Shown here one piece after another: positions 1 to 13,868 of a stretch of 14,154 bases of DNA. Every line of letters begins with the position of its first letter. Position 1 is the first letter of the stretch. The translations under genes were made by a program, and so were the position numbers. Origin of the DNA: a bacterium (lineage in GTDB: Bacteria; SAR324; NAC60-12); the NCBI GenBank assembly GCA_965233585.1, contig CBDDTI010000096.1, positions 1 through 14,154 of the forward strand, in the 5' to 3' direction. The notes below the pieces were generated by a model that searched no databases, was not told where the DNA came from, and saw only the letters and a list, made by a program, of their open reading frames with translations.

Positions 1-503
1 TAGACTGGGATGGAGACACCACTTGGTGCTTTGTATTCATATTTGCTATCCTTTGTACATCCATATGTCAGGACTTGAAATTTGTCCCCTTTAAACATCA
101 TGTTCTTTTCGGTTGCCCACTTGTAAATCTTGACTAAATCCTCCTGTAAATTGAGTTCATCAGTTTTACCCCTGATCCTGTGAAGCACCTTTGTGTCATC
201 TACACAACTGGACACCTTAGAATGTGTAACATTCTCATTGATTATTTTCATCATGCAGATGAACAGGGTACCAGCAAGTACTGTTCCTTGTGGTACTTAC
301 AGGAATTGGGTCACTTTCTGCCCCATTGACCTTGACCACTTGGCTTCTTCCAGTTAGGAAGCTATAAATCCATTTACCAAGTGGCCCTCGGACTCCCAAC
401 CTTTGTAAAGTTCTTAATAGAATCCAGTGATCCACTTTGTCAAAAGGTTTTGCAAAATCAAGATAGATGACATCCACTGCATCACCTTCTTCTAGCCTTT
501 CTT
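1..503 (-). pseudogene. Decayed non-LTR retrotransposon (CR1/jockey-like) reverse transcriptase fragment, truncated at its 5' side and running off the left edge
   Basis: Minus-strand translation gives VDVIYLDFAKPFDKVDH...W..SFLTGRSQVVKVNG. After a frameshift near 297, where the usual SG of 'SGVPQG' is missing, it continues VPQGTVLAGTLF...SSCVDDTKV...LQEDLVKIYKWA..N.M.F..DKFQVL. The YADD-box equivalent reads CVDD. Confidence 0.92.
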
Positions 504-528
504 TCGAGCTTGATGTAGGCACATTTCT

Positions 529-570
529 TCTCAAAACACTCTCAAAACACCTTAAAACAGTCTAAAACGG
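529..570 (+). repeat. Short 10-11 bp tandem repeat with phased AAAAC tracts
   Basis: TCTCAAAACAC occurs twice (529-550), followed by CTTAAAACAG and TCTAAAACGG. AAAAC starts at 533, 544, 554 and 564. Confidence 0.6.
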
Positions 571-640
571 GCTTTTAACCATCCGTTTACGCATGAAAAC
601 CATCTTAAAGCGCTCTCAAACCACCTTGATGGCATCTACA

Positions 641-968
641 TTGAGCCTGTTGCAGGCTCAATCGAGCCTGTTTTCGTCTGTAATCGGCCTGCAACCGGCT
701 TGTTTTCGTCTGCAATCGGCTTGCAACAGGCTCGATCGAGCCTGTTGCAATCGAGCTTGTTGCAAGCCGATTACAGGCTCGATCGAGCCTGTTGCAAGCC
801 GATTACAGGCTCGATCGAGCCTGTTGCAAGCCGATTACAGGCTCAATCGAGCCTGTTGCAAGCCGATTACAGGCTCAATCGAGCCTGTTGCAAGCCGATT
901 ACAGGCTCAATCGAGCCTGTTGCAAGCCGATTGCAGACGAAAACAAGCCGGTTACAGGCTTGTTGCAA
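641..968. repeat. Palindromic 32-bp tandem array bracketed by 59-bp inverted repeats
   Basis: GCAAGCC recurs at 762, 794, 826, 858, 890 and 922 (period 32). The unit GCAAGCCGATTACAGGCTC(G/A)ATCGAGCCTGTT contains a 20-bp palindrome. 721-750 is a perfect 30-bp palindrome. 687-745 and 901-959 are reverse complements at 57/59 positions. Confidence 0.95.
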
Positions 969-1209
969 CATCTATTTTTCTCCATTGTCAAATTGTTCTC
1001 AATTTAAAAGCGCAAAGAAAGGTTTTGAGAATAAAAAATGTTTAAAAATTCCGTTCTTTTGCTCCAAACTCGCTCAAATGTAAAACTTTTTAACAATAAA
1101 AATGTTTAAATTCAAACTATGAAGGAGAGCGCTTAATTTAAATGTTTTACAGTTAAACCATTTCAGTATATCATTGAACCTTGTTCAGATAACACTCGCT
1201 GCAAAAATC

Positions 1210-2074: not shown

Positions 2075-3491
2075 ATGAAATTTTTTATTTTATTTTTTTG
2101 TGTCATTTTTTTGACACAAAATTCCTTTGCCCAAAACCTTTCTTTTTTTGAAAATATTTTAAAAATGTCTTCTGGATTTTACCCCCTCTTTAATTCCACT
2201 ATCAACTCAACTGTAACCAACCAATTGACGACCATCACCTCCACAACTACTGTGTCTACCACCACTACAATTACTACGACTTCTGCTGCCTCGTTTACAA
2301 CCACTACAATTACCACTTCAAGCTCCATTACTATTACAACTACCTCTACTTCATTGTCTAGCAGCACCACATCCGCAACTACTGTTTCTTCTACCTTACC
2401 AATCATCTTCTCTTCGACTTCATCAATTACCTCTACCACCAACAGCGTCACTACCACTGTACCAACGTCCATGCCTACAACTTCAACAACTTCGACTGTA
2501 TCAACAACTAGTTCCACAACCGCAACAATCACCTCTAACACCCCATTAACCACTGTCTCTTCACCTACATTAATTACCTCAACTACCACCCCTACTACCT
2601 CAACCATTAGCCCCACATTCACAACAAACCCATCCGCAACAATCACCTCCACCATCACCACTTCAAAGCCTTTAATCACTATTCCAAAGATGACATTTGG
2701 TGAATTTTTGCTTGAACAATTTACCTTTGACAGTAAGTCTCATTTGTTTCATTTTTACATTTATTTTCTCTAATATTCATATTACTATTTTGCAGACGGA
2801 TTTAAATTATTAGTAATTGTTATTCTTATGATCGTATGTCTTTTGGTGACGGTCCTAACAATTAAATTTTGGAGATTGAATAACCAATTAACTCAACACA
2901 ATCAACCCAATTCTGAAGTAAGTATTTTATTTTAAAATTTCTGTTTTACAAAAATTATAATTTTCCTATTTTATTTTCAGTTTTATGAAATGTCAACACT
3001 TCGTCGTGAGAAAGCCGATCAAGATTCAACTTCTGAAACAAATGTTGAAGTTTTGGACGCTCCTTCTTCTCCAGCTATTGACAATTCAGGACCAAAAACA
3101 TGCAACAAAATAATGAATACTGATGAATCATATTTGACGGATTTGGCGGTAAAAATATTTTTTATTCTCAAAATCATTCATTATAATCATACATTTACTT
3201 TATTATTTTTAGAAATCTCATTTTCAACCAGTGATTCGCCCAATTCCGTTGTATCCACGTACTACGCTCGAGAGACGACGGGCTCAATATTTCAATGAGT
3301 CTTTCAACCCTCTTTTTCCCGTCACCACCGCTCAAGATGACCCAACTCCGTTATATTCACGTTCTATATTTGACAGACGACGAACTCAAATTTTCAATGA
3401 TTCTTCCAACCCTCTTTTTTCCGTCACCACCGCTCAAGAGGAGTCTTCAAAATCTGCTTCTTCTGTTTTGCATCCGCCTACTTCGCTTTAA
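2075..3491 (+). CDS. Type I membrane mucin-like glycoprotein, 408 aa; join(2075..2732,2796..2917,2981..3148,3213..3491)
   Basis: Signal peptide MKFFILFFCVIFLTQNSFA followed by a long Thr/Ser-rich ectodomain. Three GT-AG introns (63, 63, 64 bp) join in phase. Exon 2, absent from the ORF track, supplies the TM helix LLVIVILMIVCLLVTVLTI followed by KFWR. Spliced length is 1227 nt, divisible by 3. Confidence 0.85.
3240..3443 (+). repeat. 102-bp (34-aa) tandem duplication in the mucin cytoplasmic tail
   Basis: PIPLYPRTTLERRRAQYFNESFNPLFPVTTAQDD versus PTPLYSRSIFDRRRTQIFNDSSNPLFSVTTAQEE. Confidence 0.9.
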
Positions 3492-3595
3492 ATTTTTATT
3501 TTATATTTTATTGTATTAGTAGGTAAGGTATTATTTAGAGTATGCGCATCTCTTTTATTTTAAAATATACATATGTACACAGTAACCACCTCATT

Positions 3596-4808
3596 TCATT
3601 GTTGAATTTTGGGTAGTTTTTTTTTAATGCCGAAACACAATTCCATGAACGCCTTTGTTATTTCTTCCAATCCTCTCAAAGGTACCTGGATTTTCATGAT
3701 TTTTGTCGAATATTGTTGGTTGTTTTCATTATACTGAAAAAGCATGCGGTTTAAAAGTGATCAATTTTTGCTATCAATTTTACTTACGTGTTCCTTTTTC
3801 ATGTAGATTACCGGCCAGGTCGACAATCCTCCAGCTTTTTGAATATGCCTCAAACCAGTGATTCCTACGGTCACTTGAGGATTAAGGTATACGACCTTAT
3901 ACATTGGTTTTATTGGAAGGCTAACAGTTTTTTCATCCACCTTTTTGTTCTTGATTAGTTCAATAAACTTCTTTAGTGTAGCCGGATTTATGTACATGTA
4001 CTGGAATAAAAATTTTATTATTTCTGCAATAAAATCAAGCCAAATTTAATTATCAAAACTTACGTTATCTGGCCCAAAAAAGTACGCTTCTCTTGTAGAA
4101 TGTTCTTTTTGCCATTCCACAAAATCAATGTCTCTAGTGTCAGCCATTTTTTCAGTTGTCCAATTTCGAAAAAATACTTTTTGCTCCTCTTCATTCATTA
4201 AAATTTGATACGCCATCAACGACGCACCTTCATAAACCGCGTGGTTGTTAATTTCATTTTCTAACTTCTGCATCTTCTTAATCGGATTTTTTCTTTTCTT
4301 TCCTAAAATATCTTGTGTCTGTTCGTCAAGGTCTTCATCCGTACTAATTACATTGTCATCATCAACATCATCATCATCATCATCATCGTCATTATTTTCT
4401 GAACTTTCATCGCTCGGTTGTTCTACTTCAGTTGAAGCATCATCAGAGTTGGAAGTTAACTCTTCCGCTTCCGATTCCTCAATTTCTTCAGACATGTCAT
4501 CTGATTCCGATGTTGACATGTTTTCTTTCTCTTTTTGTTTCTTTTCTAAAATGTTGATCAAAATAGCAAATAATGTTCACGTAATAAAATATAAATTTCA
4601 AATTACCTGATCTTAATTGATGTTTTTTATTTGAATTCTTCTTGGAGTTCCTAGTTTCACGTTTCTTCTTACCAATCTTTTTATCATTTTTTTCTGTCTC
4701 CTTTTTGGTCTTCTTCTTTTTCTCCTCCTGAATAATCTTATGATTGTCCTCTTTGGCATCTTTGATGCGAGAATTTAATTTTCTCTTTTTTATTGGTGAT
4801 TCCTTCAT
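3596..4808 (-). CDS. Basic/acidic nuclear protein with possible tandem PC4-like ssDNA-binding domains, 344 aa; complement(join(3596..3733,3788..4000,4064..4545,4607..4808))
   Basis: Three GT-AG introns (61, 63, 54 bp; donors GTAATT, GTAAGT, GTAAGT) fuse three track ORFs plus a fourth exon in phase (1035 nt). The protein has a Lys-rich N-terminus, an Asp/Glu tract and a globular C-terminal half. The gene model is well supported; the PC4 call is a tentative visual match. Confidence 0.8.
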
Positions 4809-5013
4809 GTTCTTTTCTTAAATGCGGGTTATTTACTCCAAACTCAAATTTATACTGACATTCAAAATAAAAATTCCATTCTTTTAAACCTTTTTAAAGT
4901 TTAATGTCTACCACCAACATGCGTTAGTTGACGCCCTAAAGGACCCAACACCGTCCATGTGAGAGGGCAAGTGTTCGATACGATCATTGAAATAAAATTT
5001 CAATTAAGAAACT

Positions 5014-5326
5014 AAGCTTGTGATCAAAAAATTTAAAAACTTAAAATGACACGAACATAAATTTTCCGTTGATTGAAGTATTTAACGGAGATTAGATGAT
5101 GTACATTGCATTGTCAACCAAGCACGTGTTCAAGGAATTTTAAAAACTCAAAATGACATGAACATAAATTTTCCGTTGATTGAAGTATTTAACAAAGATT
5201 AGATGATGTACATTGCATTGTCAACCAAGCACGTGTCCAAGGAATTTAAAAAACTTGAAATATCATGATCATAAAATTTTCATTGATTTAAGTATTAAAC
5301 TGAGATTAAATGATGCACGTTGCATC
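5014..5326. repeat. 107-bp direct repeat (two near-identical copies plus one degenerate) in a divergent intergenic region
   Basis: AACATAAATTTTCCGTTGATTGAAGTATTTAAC at 5054 and 5161, degenerate copy at 5268. CACGTG E-boxes at 5123-5128 and 5230-5235. Confidence 0.92.
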
Positions 5327-5415
5327 GAGAATCAGTGACCATAAATTTACTGTCAGAAATTTGATTGTTCAGGGTGTTGGGCAGGATTTTTCTCGTGCAG
5401 TTATTTCCTGGTGCG

Positions 5416-5501
5416 ATTGGTCTAGAAACCGTTTAAAAGTGAGCGCCTCACCGCTTAAATTTCTATAAAAGTCAGGATTTATATTTTCCATTCCGTCATT
5501 C
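5416..5501 (+). promoter_or_regulatory. Candidate RNA polymerase II core promoter
   Basis: Inverted CCAAT (ATTGG 5416-5420), TATAAAAG at 5464-5471, initiator-like TCATTC at 5496-5501, and no ATG before 5560. Confidence 0.6.
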
Positions 5502-5559
5502 CATTTTCGTTCATTTACCAAGAAAAGTCTTCTACCCCAAGTCAATTCTCAAGGTAAAA

Positions 5560-6342
5560 ATGCCTGGTCTTAACAATTCTGAATCTCGTCAAGTAATTCA
5601 TGACTCGCAAGGGTTAAGGGTTACAGTACGTATTGCTGATGATTCAACATCAAACTCTAACAACAACAACAACAACACCGCCGATGATTCAACATCGGAC
5701 CCTACAATCAATAATAATAACTCCGATGATTTGACATCGACCATCAACTCTGATGATTTAACATCAGTCTCTCCAACTGTTGTACCGATTGGACGAGGTG
5801 AGAGGTTAGCGAGACCAAATAACGTCTCAAACCCCCTTTTTGCTGGACGCGGAGTTGGACGAGGTGGGTCTGTCCGCAACACCTCAAATATTTCGAATGT
5901 CGGGCGTGGTGTTGGTCGAGGTCAACCAATTCAAAGAAATCCTCAACCATCTACTTCTGCTCCAACGGCTGGGCGGGAGGTTGGAGGCGGTGCTGGCAGG
6001 GGTGGAAGATATTTTCACCCTTACCGTCGTCCAGCAACTCAAACTTCGGCCTCTACCATAAACGGTTCTCGTTCAAGTTCCGTTATTTTTATAAACAGCG
6101 ATGGGGAAGAATTTGAGGAGGAGGAGGATTTTGATGAGACGGATTATGACTACCATTATTCTACTTGTGTCGAACATTTATTCAACAGAAGAAGAGTAAT
6201 TTTCGATATTAATGAAAGATATGCTGAGTCTTTGATTCAACGTCAAATACGATCACTTGAGCGACAAAATCTTTGGCTTCGAAATGAATGCCAAAGATTA
6301 AACACTCAATTGCAACGATGTAGGGAGTTGTTGTCTTCTTAA
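5560..6342 (+). CDS. Low-complexity protein with GRG repeats, PY-NLS-like motif, acidic patch and C-terminal leucine zipper, 260 aa
   Basis: AAAA-ATG start. GRGVGRG twice plus AGRGGR, RGGRYFHPY, EEFEEEEDFDE, and the heptad L-ERQNLW-L-RNECQR-L-NTQLQR-C. AATAAA at 6399-6404. Confidence 0.75.
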   Translation: MPGLNNSESRQVIHDSQGLRVTVRIADDSTSNSNNNNNNTADDSTSDPTINNNNSDDLTSTINSDDLTSVSPTVVPIGRGERLARPNNVSNPLFAGRGVGRGGSVRNTSNISNVGRGVGRGQPIQRNPQPSTSAPTAGREVGGGAGRGGRYFHPYRRPATQTSASTINGSRSSSVIFINSDGEEFEEEEDFDETDYDYHYSTCVEHLFNRRRVIFDINERYAESLIQRQIRSLERQNLWLRNECQRLNTQLQRCRELLSS

Positions 6343-6428
6343 GATTTTTTGAGTTCATAATGTATATATTATAAAATGTAGTCTCAAATTAATGTTAAAA
6401 TAAATTTTGATTTCAGAATTTTGTAAGA

Positions 6429-7148
6429 ATGCCGAAATCTTACGTGTGTCCCGAATGCCAAAAATCATTTGACAGAAAATCTTCTCGCGACAAACATCAT
6501 TTATTTCGTCATCGCGAAACTACAAAATCTCGAGCTCGGACCCCACTCAATCAGTCGTTTCAATGCCCATTTTGTAAGAACGAAGTAAGTTCTTTTAAAT
6601 CAAGAAAAGATTTAGTCTCACACATTGACGCTTCTCATTTAGAAAATTTAAATTATTCATTGTACAAATCCGCACTTAACGGAAAAATCAAATTTTATCG
6701 AAAACACATTTTTTCAAAAGAAACACTTCAAGGATTTGTTGCAAATAAAAAAAATAGACAAGAAATAGTTGACGTTATTTGTCACGAACTAAGTAAAACT
6801 TTTACGGTTAAAGTTGCTCTTATTTTGACAGCGGCGTATCAAATTCCTGATTTGAATTCTGCTGCAGAGAAGAAGGACATTGAACTAGATACTACCAATA
6901 TTGATGATACCTCTGATAAACCTTCTGATCAGTCGTCGCCTCAAATATTGTCCAATGATCGAGATGTTTTTGCTCTAAGAACCAGCTACATTCAATTCAC
7001 GTCTTTTGATTCATCCCGCTCGTTAAAAGGCAAAGTCCAAAAATTATTACATAATTTAGTAAATAGAGAAGAAGATTTGTTAATGAGAGGTTCTGGATGG
7101 AGATTTGAATCTTTATCTTTTAGCGATATTCAAATTACTAGCATTTGA
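6429..7148 (+). CDS. C2H2 zinc-finger plus terminal-protein-like ORF (region normally forming the N-terminus of Polinton pPolB), 239 aa
   Basis: Two C2H2 fingers (CPEC..H...H; CPFC..H....H), SALNGKIKFY, VKVALIL and EEDLLMRGSGWRFESL. The GSGW block is characteristic of Polinton pPolB N-termini. Ends TGA 7146-7148, with AATAAA at 7152 and 7187. Confidence 0.8.
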   Translation: MPKSYVCPECQKSFDRKSSRDKHHLFRHRETTKSRARTPLNQSFQCPFCKNEVSSFKSRKDLVSHIDASHLENLNYSLYKSALNGKIKFYRKHIFSKETLQGFVANKKNRQEIVDVICHELSKTFTVKVALILTAAYQIPDLNSAAEKKDIELDTTNIDDTSDKPSDQSSPQILSNDRDVFALRTSYIQFTSFDSSRSLKGKVQKLLHNLVNREEDLLMRGSGWRFESLSFSDIQITSI

Positions 7149-7200
7149 TTTAATAAACTTATTTTGTTTTATTCAAAAAAATTTCAAATAAACTTTGGAA

Positions 7201-10200
7201 ATGGATTTTATAGAAATTCCACGTGATTTAAAGAGATCTAATTGCTTGGAATGGAAAACTCGTTACGATAAATTCAATTTTCTTTATCTGTACATTAGAC
7301 ATCTTTTTCCTGAGGAAACGGTTTCCGTTGTTGATTTTCGTCAAATGCCGATAAAGTATCTTAAAAAGTTTAATATAAGAGGTTTCAAATTCCCTCTTCA
7401 ATTTTGTAATTTAAAAAAATTCTTAAATAGAAACTCCCATTTACCAATTTCAATTTCAGTTTTTTATGAGAGTGAAGGTCAAGTTTCAAAGTTAGGTTTT
7501 TTTACTAACAAAAACAACAACAGAAACAAAAACATTTTAAATTTGTTAATGATAAAATATGATCCTGAAATCTCTCTTGAAAATGAATCTCCATTTTCTC
7601 GCCTTGCAAAACCAATTCAACGCAAGAAAAAATCTTCTTGTAAAAAGATTGTCAATTGTAGTTCTAATGTCAAATTGGGTTTTTCTTCCAAGTTTAAAAA
7701 GATCAAGGATTTAAATCAACAGCACCATTTCTTTAAAATTACCAAAATCCAAGGTTTTTTGAATAATCGGGCCGGACTGTTGTCGGGTAAAAAAGCAGCT
7801 CAACAGAAGCACATCTATTGTGAAAAATGTCTGCTTCATTTTCGATCCAAATCTAAAAAAGAAAAACACGAAAACACTTGCTGTGATAAACAACGTGCTA
7901 TCTACCCAAGTAAAAATTCCTCCATAAGTTTTACCAATCATAAACATAAATTTCATGCTCCTGTTGTTGGATTTTGTGATTTTGAATGTGTACTTCAAAG
8001 AAACAAAGAACGATCTAAATGTCAACTCTGTTTAAAAACTGAGTGTTTGTGTGCTTTTCCCACCAGTGACGATATAAACGTGCATAGACCAGTGGGGTAT
8101 AGCTTGCTTTTTGTGGATTCGAATGATGAGGTATTTTTTCAAGAAGAATATGTAGGAGAGGATGCAGCCAAACATTTTTTGGATCGAATGCATTTCTATG
8201 AAAAAGTTGTTGACGAAAGAAAACAAAAATTCAGACATATTGTTAAAAATCAATCTAGTCCGCAAGAATGGCAAATGTATCAAAAAGCAAAAGTTTGTCA
8301 TATTTGTGGTGGTCAATTCAAAAAGTACTCTAGAAATTACAGAAAAGTTCTAGATCATGATCACGTGACAGGGAAAATAATGGGCGCAGCTCATTCACTG
8401 TGTAACTTGACGAGATCCGGCCCCTTTCACACACCAATTTTTTTCCACAACGCTCAAGGGTAAGAAGTCTTAATTGGGTTTATTTATTAAACTAACACAA
8501 ATTATGTACGCGTTTCAGATACGATTTGCATTTAATCGTGGAAGAGTTAAATGTTTCCAAATTTAAGCAAAATGTAAAAGTCTTAGCAAAAAACAGTGAA
8601 AAGTTTCGCACTCTTACATTGGGCAAATTTAAAATTCAAGATTCGTTAGAGCACATTTCTGGCAGTCTAGATGCACTTGTTCAAGATTTGAATCAGACCT
8701 CAAATTTTACCTTTCCCATTTTACAACAAATGGAAAGATATAAAAAAATTCCTGTTCGTCAAAAATCAAAAGCTTTAAAACTTTTAAAAAGAAAAGGCGT
8801 TTTTTGTTACGAACATTTCCAATCTTTAGAAGAGATGAAGAAAAGTCGAAACCTTCCGTCCAAAGACTCTTTTTATTCTGAATTAAACGAAGAACACATT
8901 ACGGAAGCGGATTATTCCCATGCTCAAGAAGTCTTTAAATTGTTCAAATGCAAGAATGTGGTGGATTACATGATGCTCTATTGTTCTTTAGACGTTGTTT
9001 TGCTGTGTGAAGCATTTCTTCAGTACAGGAAAATGGTTATGGAACATTTTCAATTGGATCCTGTTTATTATCTAGGTAAACTTTAATCTTTACTGTTGGA
9101 TGTATCGTAATACTAAATTTGTTCTACCTAAATTAGGAATTCCTGGCTTGAGTTTTGATGTCATGCTTATGTTCTTTCAAAATTCAGAACAAGCTAAATC
9201 AGATAATAAGCTCACATCCGAATCTGAAACCTCCAAACCCCTCGGATCATTAGATGTCTATTCCGATCCTGAAATGGAGCGTTTTTTTACAAAGGGTATC
9301 AGAGGTGGGCAAAGTTTTATCGCTCAGCGTTATGCCAAAGGGAATAGCAATCCTAGAAAAAGCGGCGATCACTTGTTATACATTGATGGTAATTTTATAC
9401 TGTATTATCTGATGAAATCATTTTTGTTATGATCCATACAATTTTTCAGCCAACAACTTATACGGGAGTATGGAAACTTTAAAATTACCAGTTTCTGATT
9501 TCCAATGGGTTTCAAAAACAGAATTTAAAAATTGGACTGCCGAAGATATTATCAACATTCCTTCGCAAGACGATACTGGATATGCGTTCGAAGTTGATTT
9601 GCATTATCCTTCTCATCTTCACCAGGTAAATCCGATCTTTGTTGTGATACGTTATTTATTGTTTTGACAAGTTACATGATATCATTTTCAGGCACACGAT
9701 CAATTTCCGCTGGCTCCGTATACAGACACGGTTTCTTTTAAACATCTATCTCCTTACAATCGCCGTTTACTGAAACATCACTGTCCTCGAGATTATAGGA
9801 ACAAAAGATACCGGAGCAAGAAATTGTTGAGCACTTTTTATGACCGAAAAAAGTACGTGGTGCATCTGGAAAACCTGCAGTACTACTTGAAAAAGGGCAT
9901 GAAGTTGCTGAAGATAAGAAGAGTCATGAAGTTTCGACAAAAAGCTTTTTTGAAGGAGTTCATCGAAAAGGTCACAAAGCTGCGATCAAATGCTCGCAAT
10001 GACTTTGAACTCCGGCTTTTTAAACTTTTTGCCAACTCTACTTTTGGAAAATTTATTGGTAAGTTTTGAGATAAGATAATTTAATGATGTTGAGATTGTA
10101 AAAGACGCAAAAGCGTAATTTGACGCAGTCCATTTTTCTGTAAAAAATGAATTTGTTAAATACTCAAACGAATTTGGGGTCATTTTTTGTATTTTTTCTT

Positions 10201-13109
10201 TAATTTTGAGGCACAAGTGCGTGGTGGTACCGGCGACAGTTGCGGCAGTACGTCCTGCCGGCACCAACCACACACTTAGCCTCATCAAAATCGTCATCTT
10301 CAGAAACATCGGCTTCGTTGGAGGGGCTGACGTCTGCGGGGATGACGTCAGCGGGGCTGACGTCGGTGGGGATGACGTTGGCGGGGATGACGTCGGTGGG
10401 GATGACGTCCGGACGACCGGCGACAAAGTCGGCGACGGAGGCGGCGGCCGTCCTGATCATCATGATCAAGCCTCTGGCAAGCCGTCTAAGACGGCCACCG
10501 CCCCACATCAGTGGTGGACGCGGCGGTGTCTCGCTCAATGGCGGGTCCGGCAGCAGCTTGAACTTCTCCTCCTCCTCCTCTTCCGTCCATTTCGCCCTCA
10601 ACACCTCGTATTTCCCCCTCCTCATCCTTCCTAACTTTACCTTGTCCATTTTCCTTTTCCTTCTCCTTCTCCTCTTCCTTCTCTAAATTTGTTTTGAATT
10701 TTCCCGCATGGTTTTGTCAATTTTAGAAAATGAATCTCCAAACCTTCACATATTAATTAGCAAATTATCTCATAAATATTCATAATATTAAATCAATATT
10801 AAATTAAAAATTCGCAAAATGAATTAATCAAGTACGCAAACTTTTGAAAAATCAATTTTTATAAAATGATGTGTTTATTTTGTAATCAAAAAGAAAAAGA
10901 AAAATGATCAAATTTAAATTTTAATTTTTTTTTGTAACTTTTCGAGCTGTAGACGGAGACCACACTGATGGAAATGCCGTTACTTGACGCACTTCTGGTG
11001 TTGGTGAAGGTTCCACGTGAGTATAGGGTTGTGGTTTAGATTTTTGTGTTGATTGTGAAGACAAATCAAATGACACGCGATGAGAGGTCTGCTTTCGTGA
11101 CTCTGACTCCGGCCTTTGTGGGACGGATTTGTACGGGGTTCGTGATGGCCAAGCAGGTGCTACGGGTCGCTCGGAAGATGCCCATGATTCTCCACCCAAA
11201 GCCGCAGAAGATGACCATGCTCCTCCAGTTTTAGTAGATGACCATGCCCCCTCAGTTTTAGCTGATGACCATGCTCCTCCGCCCACAGCCCCAGAAGATG
11301 TCCATGCTCCTCCGGTTTTAGTGGATGACCATGCTCCCCCGCCCCCAGCCCCGGTAGTAGATGCACTCTTCCACGACTCCGACCCTGATTTTTGTGGGAC
11401 GGATTTGTACGGGGTCCGTGATGGCCAAGCAGGTGCCACGGGACGTTCGGAAGATGCCCATGATCCCCCACCCAAGGCCGCAGAAGATGACCATGCTCCC
11501 GCAGTTTTAGTGGATGACCATGCCCCCTCATTTTTAGCAGATGACCATGCTCCTCCGCCCACAGCCCCAGAAGATGACCATGCTCCTCTGGTTTTAGTGG
11601 ATGACCATGCTCCCCCACTCCCGGCTCCGACAGTAGATGCACTCTTCCACGACTCCCGCTCTGATTTTTGTGGGACGGACTTGTACGGGGTCCGTGATGG
11701 CCAAGCAGGTGCCACGGGACGTTCGGAAGATGACCATGATTCCCCACCCAAGGCCGCAGAAGATGACCATGCTCCTCCGGTTTTAGTGGATGACCATGCT
11801 CCTCCGCCCCCGACCCCGGCAGTAGATGCGCTCTTCCACGACTCCGACCCTGATTTTTGTGGGACGGACTTGTATGGAGTCCGTGATGGCCAAGCAGGTG
11901 CCACGGGACGCTCGGAAGATGCCCATGATCCTCCACCCGCAGCCCCAGAAGATGACCATGCTCCCTCAGTTTTTGTAGATGACCATGCTCCCCCAGCCGC
12001 AGCCCCGGTAGAGCTACTGCCAGAAGTCGGACTTGAAGTTGCCTCCTCCTGGGCTAATTCTATTACTTTTAACCAAAAAGCTTTGCTCTTTTCCTGATCT
12101 TTTTTATCCATTTTGACTTAGTGTTTATTTTGTTGGAATTTTTGATGTCCGTTTATGTCGGGCTTTAAAAAAGGAATGATTTCAAATTGAAGTAAATTAT
12201 AGTACATTGCTAATTACAGAGGAAAATGAAATGTGATATGGGACGGCTAGTTAGCTGAGGTGATTGCGCACATAATCAATTTTCTTTATTAAATAAATCT
12301 TATTTTGCATTTCAGAAAATGTTCGAAATTACTCTGAAGTGGTCCTTTGTGGTGATGAACAGAGCTTAAGGAAAGCCAGTCTTGGTCAACACATCAACAG
12401 TTTTCAAATCATCAATGAAAACTTGGTGGCTGTCAACAAGAAGCCGGCAATAATAGAGCTCAGGAAGCCTTTAGCTGTTGGATTTTCTATTTTGGAATTG
12501 TCCTAGTTGTTTATGTACAGATCGTATTATGACACGATTCAACAACATTTTGGCGAAAAAAATGTGTCTTTATGTTTCTCAGACACGGATTCTTTTCTTT
12601 TAAAAGTAAGATGCAACAACTTGGAAAGGGAAATGAAAAAATTGGAGCACATATTTGATTTTTCAAAGTACCCCAAACAACATCCTCTTTTCGATGACAG
12701 TAGAGCCAATCAGCTTTTTTATTTCAAAGACGAACTAAAAGGCAGAGCTGCTATTACTCACTTTATAGGCTTACATCCAAAATGTTATTCTATGAAAATT
12801 ACTGATTTTTCAGACAAAAACAAAACAGAAGAAAAGAAAATTTGCAAAGGTTTAAAAAAATCTAGCATAAAAAAGCAATTAACCTATAACGATTACAAAA
12901 AATGTCTAAAACGTGCTGTTCTAATTTACAAATCTTTCAAAAACTTAAGATCAAAGAATCATAAAATTCGGACATGTTTTCAAAGAAAGATTGCGTTATC
13001 AGCAATGGATTCCAAAAGACACATTTTGAATTGCGGATATCACACTTTATCACTAGGAAATTGTCTTATTGTCAACAACAAATCATCTAAATGCCCTATT
13101 TGTAAATGA
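7201..13109 (+). CDS. polB: Protein-primed family B DNA polymerase, 1134 codons, six exons, one in-frame TAG (12504-12506) in this copy; join(7201..8459,8519..9075,9137..9388,9450..9625,9692..10058,12316..13109)
   Basis: Splicing restores split motifs exactly: ExoII FHNAQG|YDLH, LDPVYYL|GIPGLSFD, motif A YID|ANNLYG, LHQ|AHDQFPLAP and motif B KLFANSTFGKFI|ENVRNY. Also present are ExoI CDFEC, ExoIII YCSLDV, GIRGG, motif C SDTDS and an endonuclease VII/HNH-like insert CHIC...DHDHVTG...AHSLCN. Introns are 59, 61, 61, 66 and 2257 bp, all GT-AG. Total 3405 nt. Confidence 0.93.
10200..10649 (-). CDS. Nested antisense hypothetical protein, 149 aa (possibly longer at the N-terminus), with DV(I/S)P(T/A) repeats and a C-terminal CxxC..HH motif
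   Basis: AAA-ATG-G start at 10649 within a GC-rich island whose limits match the ORF. Contains six 5-aa repeats and CRNCRRYHH; the stop overlaps ATTAAA. Other frames are also open over this GC-rich stretch, so the frame choice is inferred. Confidence 0.6.
   Translation of the reverse strand: MDKVKLGRMRRGKYEVLRAKWTEEEEEEKFKLLPDPPLSETPPRPPLMWGGGRLRRLARGLIMMIRTAAASVADFVAGRPDVIPTDVIPANVIPTDVSPADVIPADVSPSNEADVSEDDDFDEAKCVVGAGRTYCRNCRRYHHALVPQN
10323..10410. repeat. 15-bp tandem repeat, six copies, each with GGGG and TGACGT
   Basis: GGGG(A/C)TGACGT starts at 10323, 10338, 10353, 10368, 10383 and 10398. Confidence 0.93.
10921..12111 (-). CDS. Nested antisense Ser/Gly/Trp-rich repeat protein, 396 aa
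   Basis: CAAA-ATG-G start, unique N- and C-termini around the repeats, TAA stop, and AATAAA on the minus strand at 10874-10879. Repeat periods are all multiples of 3. Confidence 0.75.
   Translation of the reverse strand: MDKKDQEKSKAFWLKVIELAQEEATSSPTSGSSSTGAAAGGAWSSTKTEGAWSSSGAAGGGSWASSERPVAPAWPSRTPYKSVPQKSGSESWKSASTAGVGGGGAWSSTKTGGAWSSSAALGGESWSSSERPVAPAWPSRTPYKSVPQKSERESWKSASTVGAGSGGAWSSTKTRGAWSSSGAVGGGAWSSAKNEGAWSSTKTAGAWSSSAALGGGSWASSERPVAPAWPSRTPYKSVPQKSGSESWKSASTTGAGGGGAWSSTKTGGAWTSSGAVGGGAWSSAKTEGAWSSTKTGGAWSSSAALGGESWASSERPVAPAWPSRTPYKSVPQRPESESRKQTSHRVSFDLSSQSTQKSKPQPYTHVEPSPTPEVRQVTAFPSVWSPSTARKVTKKN
11105..11993 (-). repeat. Hierarchical coding repeat: four large units (spacing 276, 276, 189 bp) containing 27-33 bp GAWSS subunits
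   Basis: GTGATGGCCAAGCAGGTGC starts at 11142, 11418, 11694 and 11883. ERPVAPAWPSRTPYKSVPQ occurs 4 times and GAW(S/T)S 14 times. Confidence 0.93.
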
Positions 13110-13172: not shown

Positions 13173-13868
13173 ATGGATGGTTTTGATTTAAGGTTCAGTA
13201 TTCCTTCCAACATGTTAATTGTTGGCCCAACATCGAGTGGAAAAACAACGTGGCTTAAACATTTAGTGGTTGGTAGGCATGAATATTTTGCAACTCCGCC
13301 AGAAACAATGTTGTTGTTCTACAAAGAACCACAAAAAGCTTATGAATACATGGAAGATAATATGAATCGAGACAAACGTTCAAACTCTCGTTTTCCAACA
13401 TTTCGTAAATTTAAAAGTATTCCAAATTCGATTGAAGAACTAAAAGATATTTTGGAATCATATCCAAGAAAAATGCCCAAATTAGTTGTTTTTGATGATT
13501 ATATAGACGATGTTGGACAAATATTAAAACATTTTTTTACGGTTTTGACTCATCACTACAATTGTTTCACCGTTTTTCTGTGTCAAAATTTATTTGATAA
13601 AAAAGGTGATTTGCGGACATTAAGCATAAACACTAAATATATGGTTCTTTTTAACAATCCTCGGGACAGAAGTGCGGTTGCGCATTTGGCTAAACAAATT
13701 TTCCCCGGACGAGTCGGAATTTTAAATAAAGCATACAGGGAAGCTGTTAACGGTCGAAGTCACGGATATCTCCTTCTAGATTTCCATCAACAACAAGACG
13801 ATAAAGTCAGAATTCGAAGCAACATTTTTCCGTACGAGGGACTGATGAAAGCTTACGTTACCGTTTAA
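13173..13868 (+). CDS. Genome-packaging ATPase (A32/FtsK-HerA superfamily, Polinton type), 231 aa
   Basis: Walker A GPTSSGKT and Walker B LVVFDD, then THHYN...CQNLF, RTLSINTKYMVLFNNPRD, LAKQIFP, GYLLLD and RIRSNIFP, as in Polinton ATPases. Intact and intronless. Confidence 0.93.
   Translation: MDGFDLRFSIPSNMLIVGPTSSGKTTWLKHLVVGRHEYFATPPETMLLFYKEPQKAYEYMEDNMNRDKRSNSRFPTFRKFKSIPNSIEELKDILESYPRKMPKLVVFDDYIDDVGQILKHFFTVLTHHYNCFTVFLCQNLFDKKGDLRTLSINTKYMVLFNNPRDRSAVAHLAKQIFPGRVGILNKAYREAVNGRSHGYLLLDFHQQQDDKVRIRSNIFPYEGLMKAYVTV

Follow-up and report, generated by a model that had tools for sequence, protein, structure and literature searches.

Can the replication gene of a virus-like transposon be divided by spliceosomal introns and still be kept as a working gene? 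The question is raised by a contig of 14,154 bases (CBDDTI010000096.1 of assembly GCA_965233585.1; C96), which was analysed whole, is referred to here as the window, and is deposited with a bacterial genome of the SAR324 lineage. From position 500 rightward, it holds the left 60% of an element of ~24 kb whose right part lies beyond the contig end. It is one slightly damaged copy of a Polinton/Maverick virus-like transposon from a eukaryotic nuclear genome. Its polB gene, encoding a protein-primed family B DNA polymerase (pPolB), is interrupted five times, and two further genes, one for a mucin-like protein and one on the minus strand, are interrupted three times each. On sequence comparison, the 11 interruptions read as real spliceosomal introns. 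We put the probability at nearly nine in ten that this is a Polinton lineage with three genes split by U2-type introns, one that needs nuclear transcription and pre-mRNA splicing, and whose introns were gained on the stem of the families here called A to D. The Polinton itself is of a known kind; what is new is an intron-rich core gene with conserved intron positions.

The initial annotation of this DNA had described 11 frame-restoring GT-AG introns, three in the mucin-like gene, three in the minus-strand gene and five in polB. Read base by base, all of the junctions were found where it had placed them (Table 1), with a GTAA start, a YAG end and the frame restored in 11/11. Ten of the introns are short (54-66 nucleotides, nt) and have 14-30% G+C, and polB intron 5 is the 2,257-nt outlier. 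The spliced polB exons sum to 3405 nt, which gives the 1134 codons plus stop of the earlier reconstruction, and the ACTAAC motif reported in intron 1 is present. The claim that the polB introns fall in catalytic motifs also stands, with labels that we take to be ExoII, motif A and motif B. Intron 1 cuts ExoII (HNAQG/YD, the slash marking the intron), intron 3 cuts motif A (YID/ANNLYG), and motif B (KLFANSTFGKFI) ends 8 nt ahead of intron 5. If splicing fails, translation that enters any of the short polB introns (introns 1 to 4) ends at a stop after 4-43 nt, and thus the polymerase could not be made from unspliced RNA.

The introns were compared across 48 polB loci of the same assembly, grouped into families by nucleotide identity to the window. 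Family A (94-99% along long aligned stretches) has 13 loci, family B (~84-90%) three, and family C (~82-86%) 11. Families D1, D2 and D3 (~64%, with 53-59% protein identity in exon 2) have two, 10 and two loci, and seven loci belong to distant families. In families A, B and C, none of the five polB introns has lost its GT..AG ends. Every scorable polB intron is present in 27/27 loci of these three families and in 2/2 D1 loci, and intron 1 is present in 41/41 A-D loci. Across A/B/C copies, the intron lengths drift by non-multiples of three (59/60/60/58, 61/61/67/65, 61/62/58/58, 66/67/58/57 and 2257/2018/1077/1338 for introns 1 to 5). The polB exons carry indels of 0, 3, 6 or 66 nt, the sole exception being the loss of 1 nt from exon 1 in the family-B copy on C224. 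Exons are 82-94% identical, whereas the short introns are 61-83% identical; exon dS is 0.39-0.78, against Jukes-Cantor distances of 0.30-0.51 in intron interiors. The six exons are under purifying selection, with dN/dS of 0.116, 0.115 and 0.103 (1128, 1101 and 1101 codons), and they are full-length, without stop or frameshift, in nine of the 13 family-A loci. It is this conservation across families, not the GT-AG pairs themselves, that places the introns beyond chance.

In family D, introns stand at the same codon positions but have unrelated sequence and other lengths, intron 5 being just 55-74 nt there. Two of these sister families have each lost one intron precisely. Intron 2 is missing from 10/10 D2 loci, which read ...DPIYYLGIPGLSFD..., and intron 4 from 2/2 D3 loci, which read ...FYPAKYHKRDDQFPLAP...; these uninterrupted readings are exactly the spliced junctions predicted for the window. 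Intron positions across relatives, proposed as a check in the initial annotation, agree with its gene model: splice sites are kept, lengths drift, and single introns are cleanly absent from D2 and D3. A spliced alignment of the polymerase, proposed there against invertebrate genomes, was made against 18 full-length, intronless homologues from public contigs (1157-1519 amino acids, aa). The offset was 0 in 15/18 at junction 1, in seven at junction 2, in 11 at junction 3 and in 14 at junction 5, and most of the remaining cases were not scorable. Four homologues gave five offsets other than 0: one at junction 1 (-4), two at junction 2 (+4 and -35), and one each at junctions 3 (+1) and 5 (-3).

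The two other split genes follow the same pattern with different strength. The 344-aa minus-strand protein, which was earlier called nuclear (a label that we take to be a guess), combines a Lys-rich N-terminus and an acidic run with a C-terminal domain that is conserved. Over the whole gene, dN/dS is 0.11-0.12, with a drop to 0.01-0.04 for exons 3-4. Compared with two B copies, its exon indels are multiples of three and its intron indels are not; exons 3-4 and the position of the third intron are conserved in families C and D. The gene is thus a conserved part of the Polinton clade rather than obvious host cargo, and searches of Pfam and Atlas gave no lead to its function. The predicted mucin-like protein has a signal peptide and a Thr/Ser-rich region; exon 2 encodes a clean transmembrane helix, the tail contains a 102-nt repeat, and there is no Pfam match. 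Its dN/dS is 0.35-0.38. Exon indels relative to two B copies are all multiples of three (-204/-222, -9, -30 and -111), and those of the introns are -1, -4 and -3. The case for introns looks thinner here than in the minus-strand gene.

The introns are, as far as their sequence tells, of the ordinary U2 spliceosomal type, and all 11 have T-rich 3' ends. Self-splicing group I or II introns were considered and rejected: no Rfam family reached its gathering score anywhere in the window, and ten of the introns are merely 54-66 nt long. Distant families of the same bin have uninterrupted polB ORFs (open reading frames) that cover the intron positions (C492, 1344 aa; C657, 888 aa; C581, 601 aa), and intron 1 is missing from C315, C606 and C657 and from the single ORF of C492. 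Intronless distant Polinton families and the intron-rich clade coexist in one bin.

A polB tree was built from exons 2-6 of 14 loci and six outgroups, exon 1 being excluded for its indels and an insertion resembling a miniature inverted-repeat transposable element (MITE). This insertion (217 nt, with inverted ends; G000:C98:7386-7602 and the same place in C212) interrupts exon 1 of D3 polB and is not an intron. The tree recovers family D as monophyletic (support 100) and separates A-C from D plus the outgroups (100); the sequences without introns lie outside. The D1+D3 grouping has 60% support and leaves the counts of intron gain and loss unaffected. Since the five introns were present in the A-D ancestor and are absent from distant Polintons, they would have been gained on the A-D stem. 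The five gains would thus precede the A-D split, with later loss of intron 2 in D2 and of intron 4 in D3. In A-C, intron 5 would have expanded from ~60 nt to its present 0.94-2.3 kb; in family A it contains a GC-rich minisatellite. This minisatellite is open in several frames on both strands (e.g., 10921-12117 on the minus strand, 398 aa), so a gene nested in intron 5 was considered; family B conserves this stretch weakly and in part, and family C does not.

By the defining features tested, the sequence classes the element as a true Polinton/Maverick. Complete copies lie at C579:528-24350 and C288:13084-36996, and inverted copies of window 500-1110 are found at the far end of both (528/24350 and 13084/36996). 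Terminal inverted repeats (TIRs) of ~600 bp, as expected of Polintons, are present in C579, C288, C224 and family C copies. The match to the window ends at 500 in three other copies, and comparison of the termini shows common ends with unrelated flanks. The initial annotation had given the element as 2075..13109; the genes are indeed there, but the element starts at 500 and passes the contig end. The loose ends of public contigs at window position 500 show the canonical terminus, unlike the window copy.

The gene order in the window is mucin-like gene, minus-strand gene, low-complexity ORF, TP-like ORF, pPolB and packaging-ATPase-like ORF. The right part of the element was read on C579, a copy 96% identical to the window. 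It encodes, all in long open frames, a zinc-finger protein, protease-like, TBP-like and TFIIB-like proteins, an rve integrase and several uncharacterised ORFs. The integrase match (E 2.8e-9; 37.6 bits, cut-off 32.6) is accompanied by a weak chromodomain match, and the adenain-like protease ORF matches Peptidase_C5 weakly (17.1 bits against a cut-off of 21.3). A 449-aa protein is predicted to have a double jelly-roll capsid fold (AlphaFold2; predicted local distance difference test, pLDDT, 80.8). Its Foldseek matches are PBCV-1 (E 2.8e-15), Sputnik (2.3e-14) and mavirus (1.3e-13), with template modelling (TM) scores of 0.54-0.60, and SGIV also lies within 1e-13 to 1e-15. The TBP-like protein (PF00352, E 3.7e-18, above the cut-off; L009:3577-4194, plus strand) adjoins the TFIIB-like protein (zinc ribbon, E 1.9e-7, above the cut-off, and helix-turn-helix matches; L009:4271-5020, plus strand). 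Both genes lie at about 17576-19019 of G000:C579, beyond the window's right end.

If the introns are spliced as predicted, the genes would be transcribed in the nucleus by RNA polymerase II (Pol II), and the host spliceosome would remove the introns before any polymerase is made. The need for the spliceosome points to nuclear Pol II transcription, and the presence of TBP-like and TFIIB-like genes in sister copies is consistent with it. Polintons are copied as DNA, so the introns would be carried into each new copy. The element may well be active at present.

Three other explanations deserve weight. The interruptions could be junk insertions in dead pseudogenes, with GT..AG and frame coincidental, and a stop in exon 6 of the window copy, the minisatellite in intron 5 and the MITE-like insertion in D3 exon 1 are what such decay would look like. 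However, decay does not leave dN/dS at ~0.1 over six exons in the predicted frames, splice sites kept between families at dS 0.4-0.8, nine copies with fully open exons and two families that precisely lack one intron with the frame intact, which makes this account barely credible. It is also very improbable that the short introns were made by introners, as in dinoflagellate polinton-like proviruses. The available text of PMC12166617 reports that ~25% of such viral elements contain introners, of which about one in four lie in coding regions, and the near-equal length of 10/11 introns here recalls such an origin. When introner copies were sought, the ten short introns proved mutually no more similar than chance (best local score 16, against 16.4 +/- 1.9 in 100 shuffled sets); an original likeness could have decayed, as the introns predate the A-D split.

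The introns could also be real in an element that is domesticated or fossil and immobile, spread by segmental duplication, its introns acquired like those of any host gene. No target-site duplications were seen at the copies inspected, and two or three copies lie close together on C212, C288, C328 and C705. A fossil is nevertheless hard to reconcile with at least 27 A-C loci that have sharp, identical termini and unrelated flanks, with capsid, protease-like, integrase and ATPase ORFs that are all open in C579, and with family-A copies as alike as those described above. This account is improbable. A Polinton lineage with spliced genes is therefore preferred.

Several points weigh against the preferred reading. 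The case for splicing comes from sequence comparison and not from RNA, and all of the families compared are from one assembly, so they do not represent independent hosts. The window copy is itself defective, with an in-frame stop in exon 6 and a clipped TIR: comparison of termini shows that ~28-30 nt at its outer end, present in other copies, are missing. A YTRAY branch-like motif occurs in the last 45 nt of only 7/11 introns. The mucin-like gene model has no outside homologue and evolves fast; it relies on frame-keeping indels and splice sites in two good copies. Target-site duplications of the 6-bp type were looked for by eye at C579, C288 and C224, and no matching flanks were found, a weak negative as the terminal base is uncertain; at C30 and C77, the 40 nt inspected were still within repeat. 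Integrase-mediated insertion of the copies examined is thus putative. A scan of GTAAGT-to-YYAG spacing in 683 non-Polinton contigs (7.5 Mb) did not bear out a likeness of the introns to the host's own. This insensitive test gave no host intron peak near ~60 nt, with 261 pairs at 50-69 nt against 308 in a reversed-order control. Four public sequencing runs are neutral: they are apparently DNA assemblies that keep the introns, with none of the 15 joints listed at a predicted splice site, and are uninformative on splicing.

Apart from their introns, the polymerase and its neighbours show several further features. The polB product has 2324 relatives at E<=1e-3 and Pfam matches to DNA_pol_B_2 (26.2 bits, cut-off 25.8) and Endonuclease_7 (26.0 bits, cut-off 23.6). 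The latter corresponds to an Endonuclease VII/HNH-type insert at residues ~355-410 of exon 1, between ExoI and ExoII, and the same Pfam family is found in two distant homologues. In some full-length pPolB homologues, the first ~200 residues match the TP-like ORF; for 5/18 homologues (P0059, P0061, P0098, P0103 and P0107), stretches inside 6423-7145 are where the N-terminal part aligns. The ORF is separate in the window and in family D, and it stops 52 nt before the polB ATG, with AATAAA motifs between. A fused TP-polB reading was rejected, as no usable GT..AG exists between 7146 and 7201. Both this ORF and the ATPase-like ORF are intronless, as first described. The ATPase-like ORF is 63-66% identical in D families and has only weak Pfam matches, to Pox_A32 (19.3 bits, cut-off 22.8), FtsK_SpoIIIE (16.7 bits, cut-off 24) and, below cut-off, ATPase_2. 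The 107-nt tandem repeat that separates the minus-strand gene from the following, divergently oriented plus-strand ORF may act as a control region for both. In the right arm, two ORFs overlap by ATGA (stop/start; L009:8290-9014, minus strand), and this arm is packed in a virus-like manner, whereas the left arm has spliced, spaced genes.

Table 1. Features of the window, with coordinates counted from its first base.
Feature	Position	Strand	Remarks
Non-LTR (long terminal repeat)-type reverse transcriptase fragment	1..499	-	flank outside element; weak Pfam RVT_1, E 4.7e-6 and 0.0023, below cut-off
Left TIR	500..1110		32-nt tandem repeat inside, at 748-936
Mucin-like type I membrane protein gene	2075..3491	+	ATG 2075; predicted exons 2075-2732, 2796-2917, 2981-3148, 3213-3491
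Mucin intron 1	2733..2795	+	63 nt, GTAAGT..CAG, phase 1; GT/AG kept in 3/3 other aligned copies; -1 in two B copies
Mucin intron 2	2918..2980	+	63 nt, GTAAGT..CAG, phase 0; GT..AG kept in 2 B copies, lost in decayed C288; indel -4
Mucin intron 3	3149..3212	+	64 nt, GTAAAA..TAG, phase 0; GT..AG kept in 2 B copies; indel -3
Minus-strand gene	3596..4808	-	ATG 4808-4806; predicted exons 4808-4607, 4545-4064, 4000-3788, 3733-3596; 344 aa
Minus-gene intron 1	4546..4606	-	61 nt, GTAATT..TAG, phase 1; +4 in other copies, exons change 0 or +3
Minus-gene intron 2	4001..4063	-	63 nt, GTAAGT..CAG, phase 0; -1 in other copies
Minus-gene intron 3	3734..3787	-	54 nt, GTAAGT..CAG, phase 0; 67-77-nt gap at same place in D-family copies
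Tandem repeat	5032..5325		107 nt x2.7, 88% matches; spacer between minus-strand gene and next plus-strand ORF
Low-complexity Gly/Arg/Asn-rich ORF	5560..6342	+	C-terminal end coiled-coil-like; no Pfam match
TP-like zinc-finger ORF	6429..7148	+	uninterrupted; weak C2H2/zf-Di19 Pfam matches
polB (pPolB)	7201..13109	+	ATG 7201
polB exons	7201-8459, 8519-9075, 9137-9388, 9450-9625, 9692-10058, 12316-13109	+	
polB intron 1	8460-8518	+	59 nt, phase 2, in ExoII; ACTAAC at 8491-8496
polB intron 2	9076-9136	+	61 nt, phase 1
polB intron 3	9389-9449	+	61 nt, phase 1, within motif A
polB intron 4	9626-9691	+	66 nt, phase 0
polB intron 5	10059-12315	+	2257 nt, phase 1, starts 8 nt past motif B
GC-rich minisatellite in intron 5	11115..11995		55-58% G+C, 276- and 189-nt periods
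In-frame stop in polB exon 6	12504..12506	+	private to C96 among exon-6 copies scored
Packaging-ATPase-like ORF	13173..13868	+	uninterrupted; Walker A GPTSSGKT

The window is not bacterial but eukaryotic DNA that was binned with a bacterial genome. The bin (12 Mb, 747 contigs) is filed as a prokaryote with a completeness of 92.5% and a contamination of 2.1%. In it, a bacterial genome is mixed with eukaryotic repeats that amount to several Mb, a chimera that the marker-based contamination figure misses. It contains tandem eukaryotic histone clusters of ~6.6 kb (e.g., C7 and C488) and 59 Polinton-bearing contigs, with many Polinton families and dozens of copies of the window's element. The window's polymerase exon was found in 0/60 relatives of the bin's bacterium. 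Searches of the bin for the actin, tubulin and kinase families returned just fragments or bacterial genes. The named relatives are all animals, with assemblies of a nemertean, an annelid, beetles and an ant among them: polB matches Lineus, Brassicogethes and Temnothorax, and the capsid protein matches Lamellibrachia and Zophobas. The host is probably a marine animal and likely an invertebrate.

The suggestion that introns hide this family from ORF-based searches is supported to some extent. Among the matches listed, seven of 12 database proteins are ORF calls on other public contigs, with 44-59% identity along the matched stretches, and they stop at the intron-1 donor, ending in ...FHNAQG or something close to it. 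By these truncated calls, the intron-bearing clade extends beyond the bin, though possibly within the same or a related organism. One scan of viral contigs in IMG/VR with alignment found no relative, and a scan of genome contigs likewise found none. A scan of metagenome contigs found one relative, which is distant and has an intronless polB in one frame. Taken as a whole, the earlier interpretation is partly supported.

Its premise that Polinton core genes are usually uninterrupted agrees with the available text of two studies. Intact vertebrate Mavericks are said to have ORFs free of introns, "in agreement with" Kapitonov and Jurka 2006 (PMC8097293), and in nematode Mavericks the core genes are intronless and cargo genes have introns (Widen et al., bioRxiv 10.1101/2022.07.12.499685). 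The element resembles animal Polintons/Mavericks (polintoviruses, adintovirus-like) in its pPolB, rve integrase, double jelly-roll capsid, long TIRs and length, and putatively in an A32/FtsK-like ATPase and an adenain-like protease ORF. Unlike those elements, as far as the same accounts describe them, it has five pPolB introns and three in another conserved gene; it also differs in its TBP-like and TFIIB-like genes and in having the TP-like N-terminal part as a separate ORF. TBP/TFIIB-type genes are known from giant viruses but, to our knowledge, not from Polintons, and no title or abstract among the literature matches listed reports them there. The mucin-like gene fits the nematode Maverick cargo (wasp, krma), in which genes with host-type introns lie between one TIR and the core. 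However, in the nematode elements, as described in the text available, introns are limited to captured cargo, whereas here the replication gene is cut too, at positions conserved across deep families. In dinoflagellates, eupolintoviral (polinton-like) proviruses that retain replication and capsid genes likewise carry spliceosomal-type introns, but the available description presents these introns as recent copies of recognisable transposon families and reports no selection on the genes they split (PMC12166617). Those of the window are mutually unrelated and old, in genes under purifying selection.

Spliced genes occur in other nuclear DNA viruses, including the adenovirus E2B polymerase/pTP mRNAs, the intron of the chlorovirus PBCV-1 DNA polymerase gene and pandoravirus introns. 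They are parallels in that a viral B-family polymerase gene depends on the host spliceosome; these cases have one intron or a leader exon. We know of no case in which five introns cut ExoII, motif A and the post-motif-B region of a protein-primed polymerase. Among the literature matches listed, none describes a Polinton core gene that has conserved spliceosomal introns, although the founding Polinton papers could alter this novelty.

A bolder reading is offered tentatively, as a minority possibility. A still-active animal Polinton lineage would have rebuilt its replication gene host-style, with five gains and two precise losses, and would carry its own TBP-like and TFIIB-like factors; its introns may be selected. 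If so, they could serve, for example, to pass surveillance that silences intronless DNA, of which HUSH is the mammalian example, or to make splicing a gate for polymerase production, and a whole branch of elements would be invisible to ORF-based virus discovery. Evasion of such surveillance is speculation. The available text on HUSH gives a precedent for surveillance of intronless DNA (PMC8770142), and that on Caenorhabditis elegans describes ERI-6/7-dependent small interfering RNAs that target genes "with few introns" (PMC11414722).

Polintons/Mavericks have been treated as compact virus-like gene sets, and intact elements are, in the literature available, even recognised by their intronless ORFs. 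The spliced polB gene carries a practical warning: ORF-based or prokaryote-style gene calling fragments such genes, database entries end at the first donor, and the contig itself was filed in a bacterial bin. It also offers a clean, datable series in an element copied as DNA, comprising intron gain, expansion from ~60 nt to 2.3 kb and precise loss, in which models of loss through reverse transcription can be examined. A polymerase that needs five splicing events, is under selection and is intact in many copies would mean that such elements can depend fully on the host nucleus and its spliceosome.

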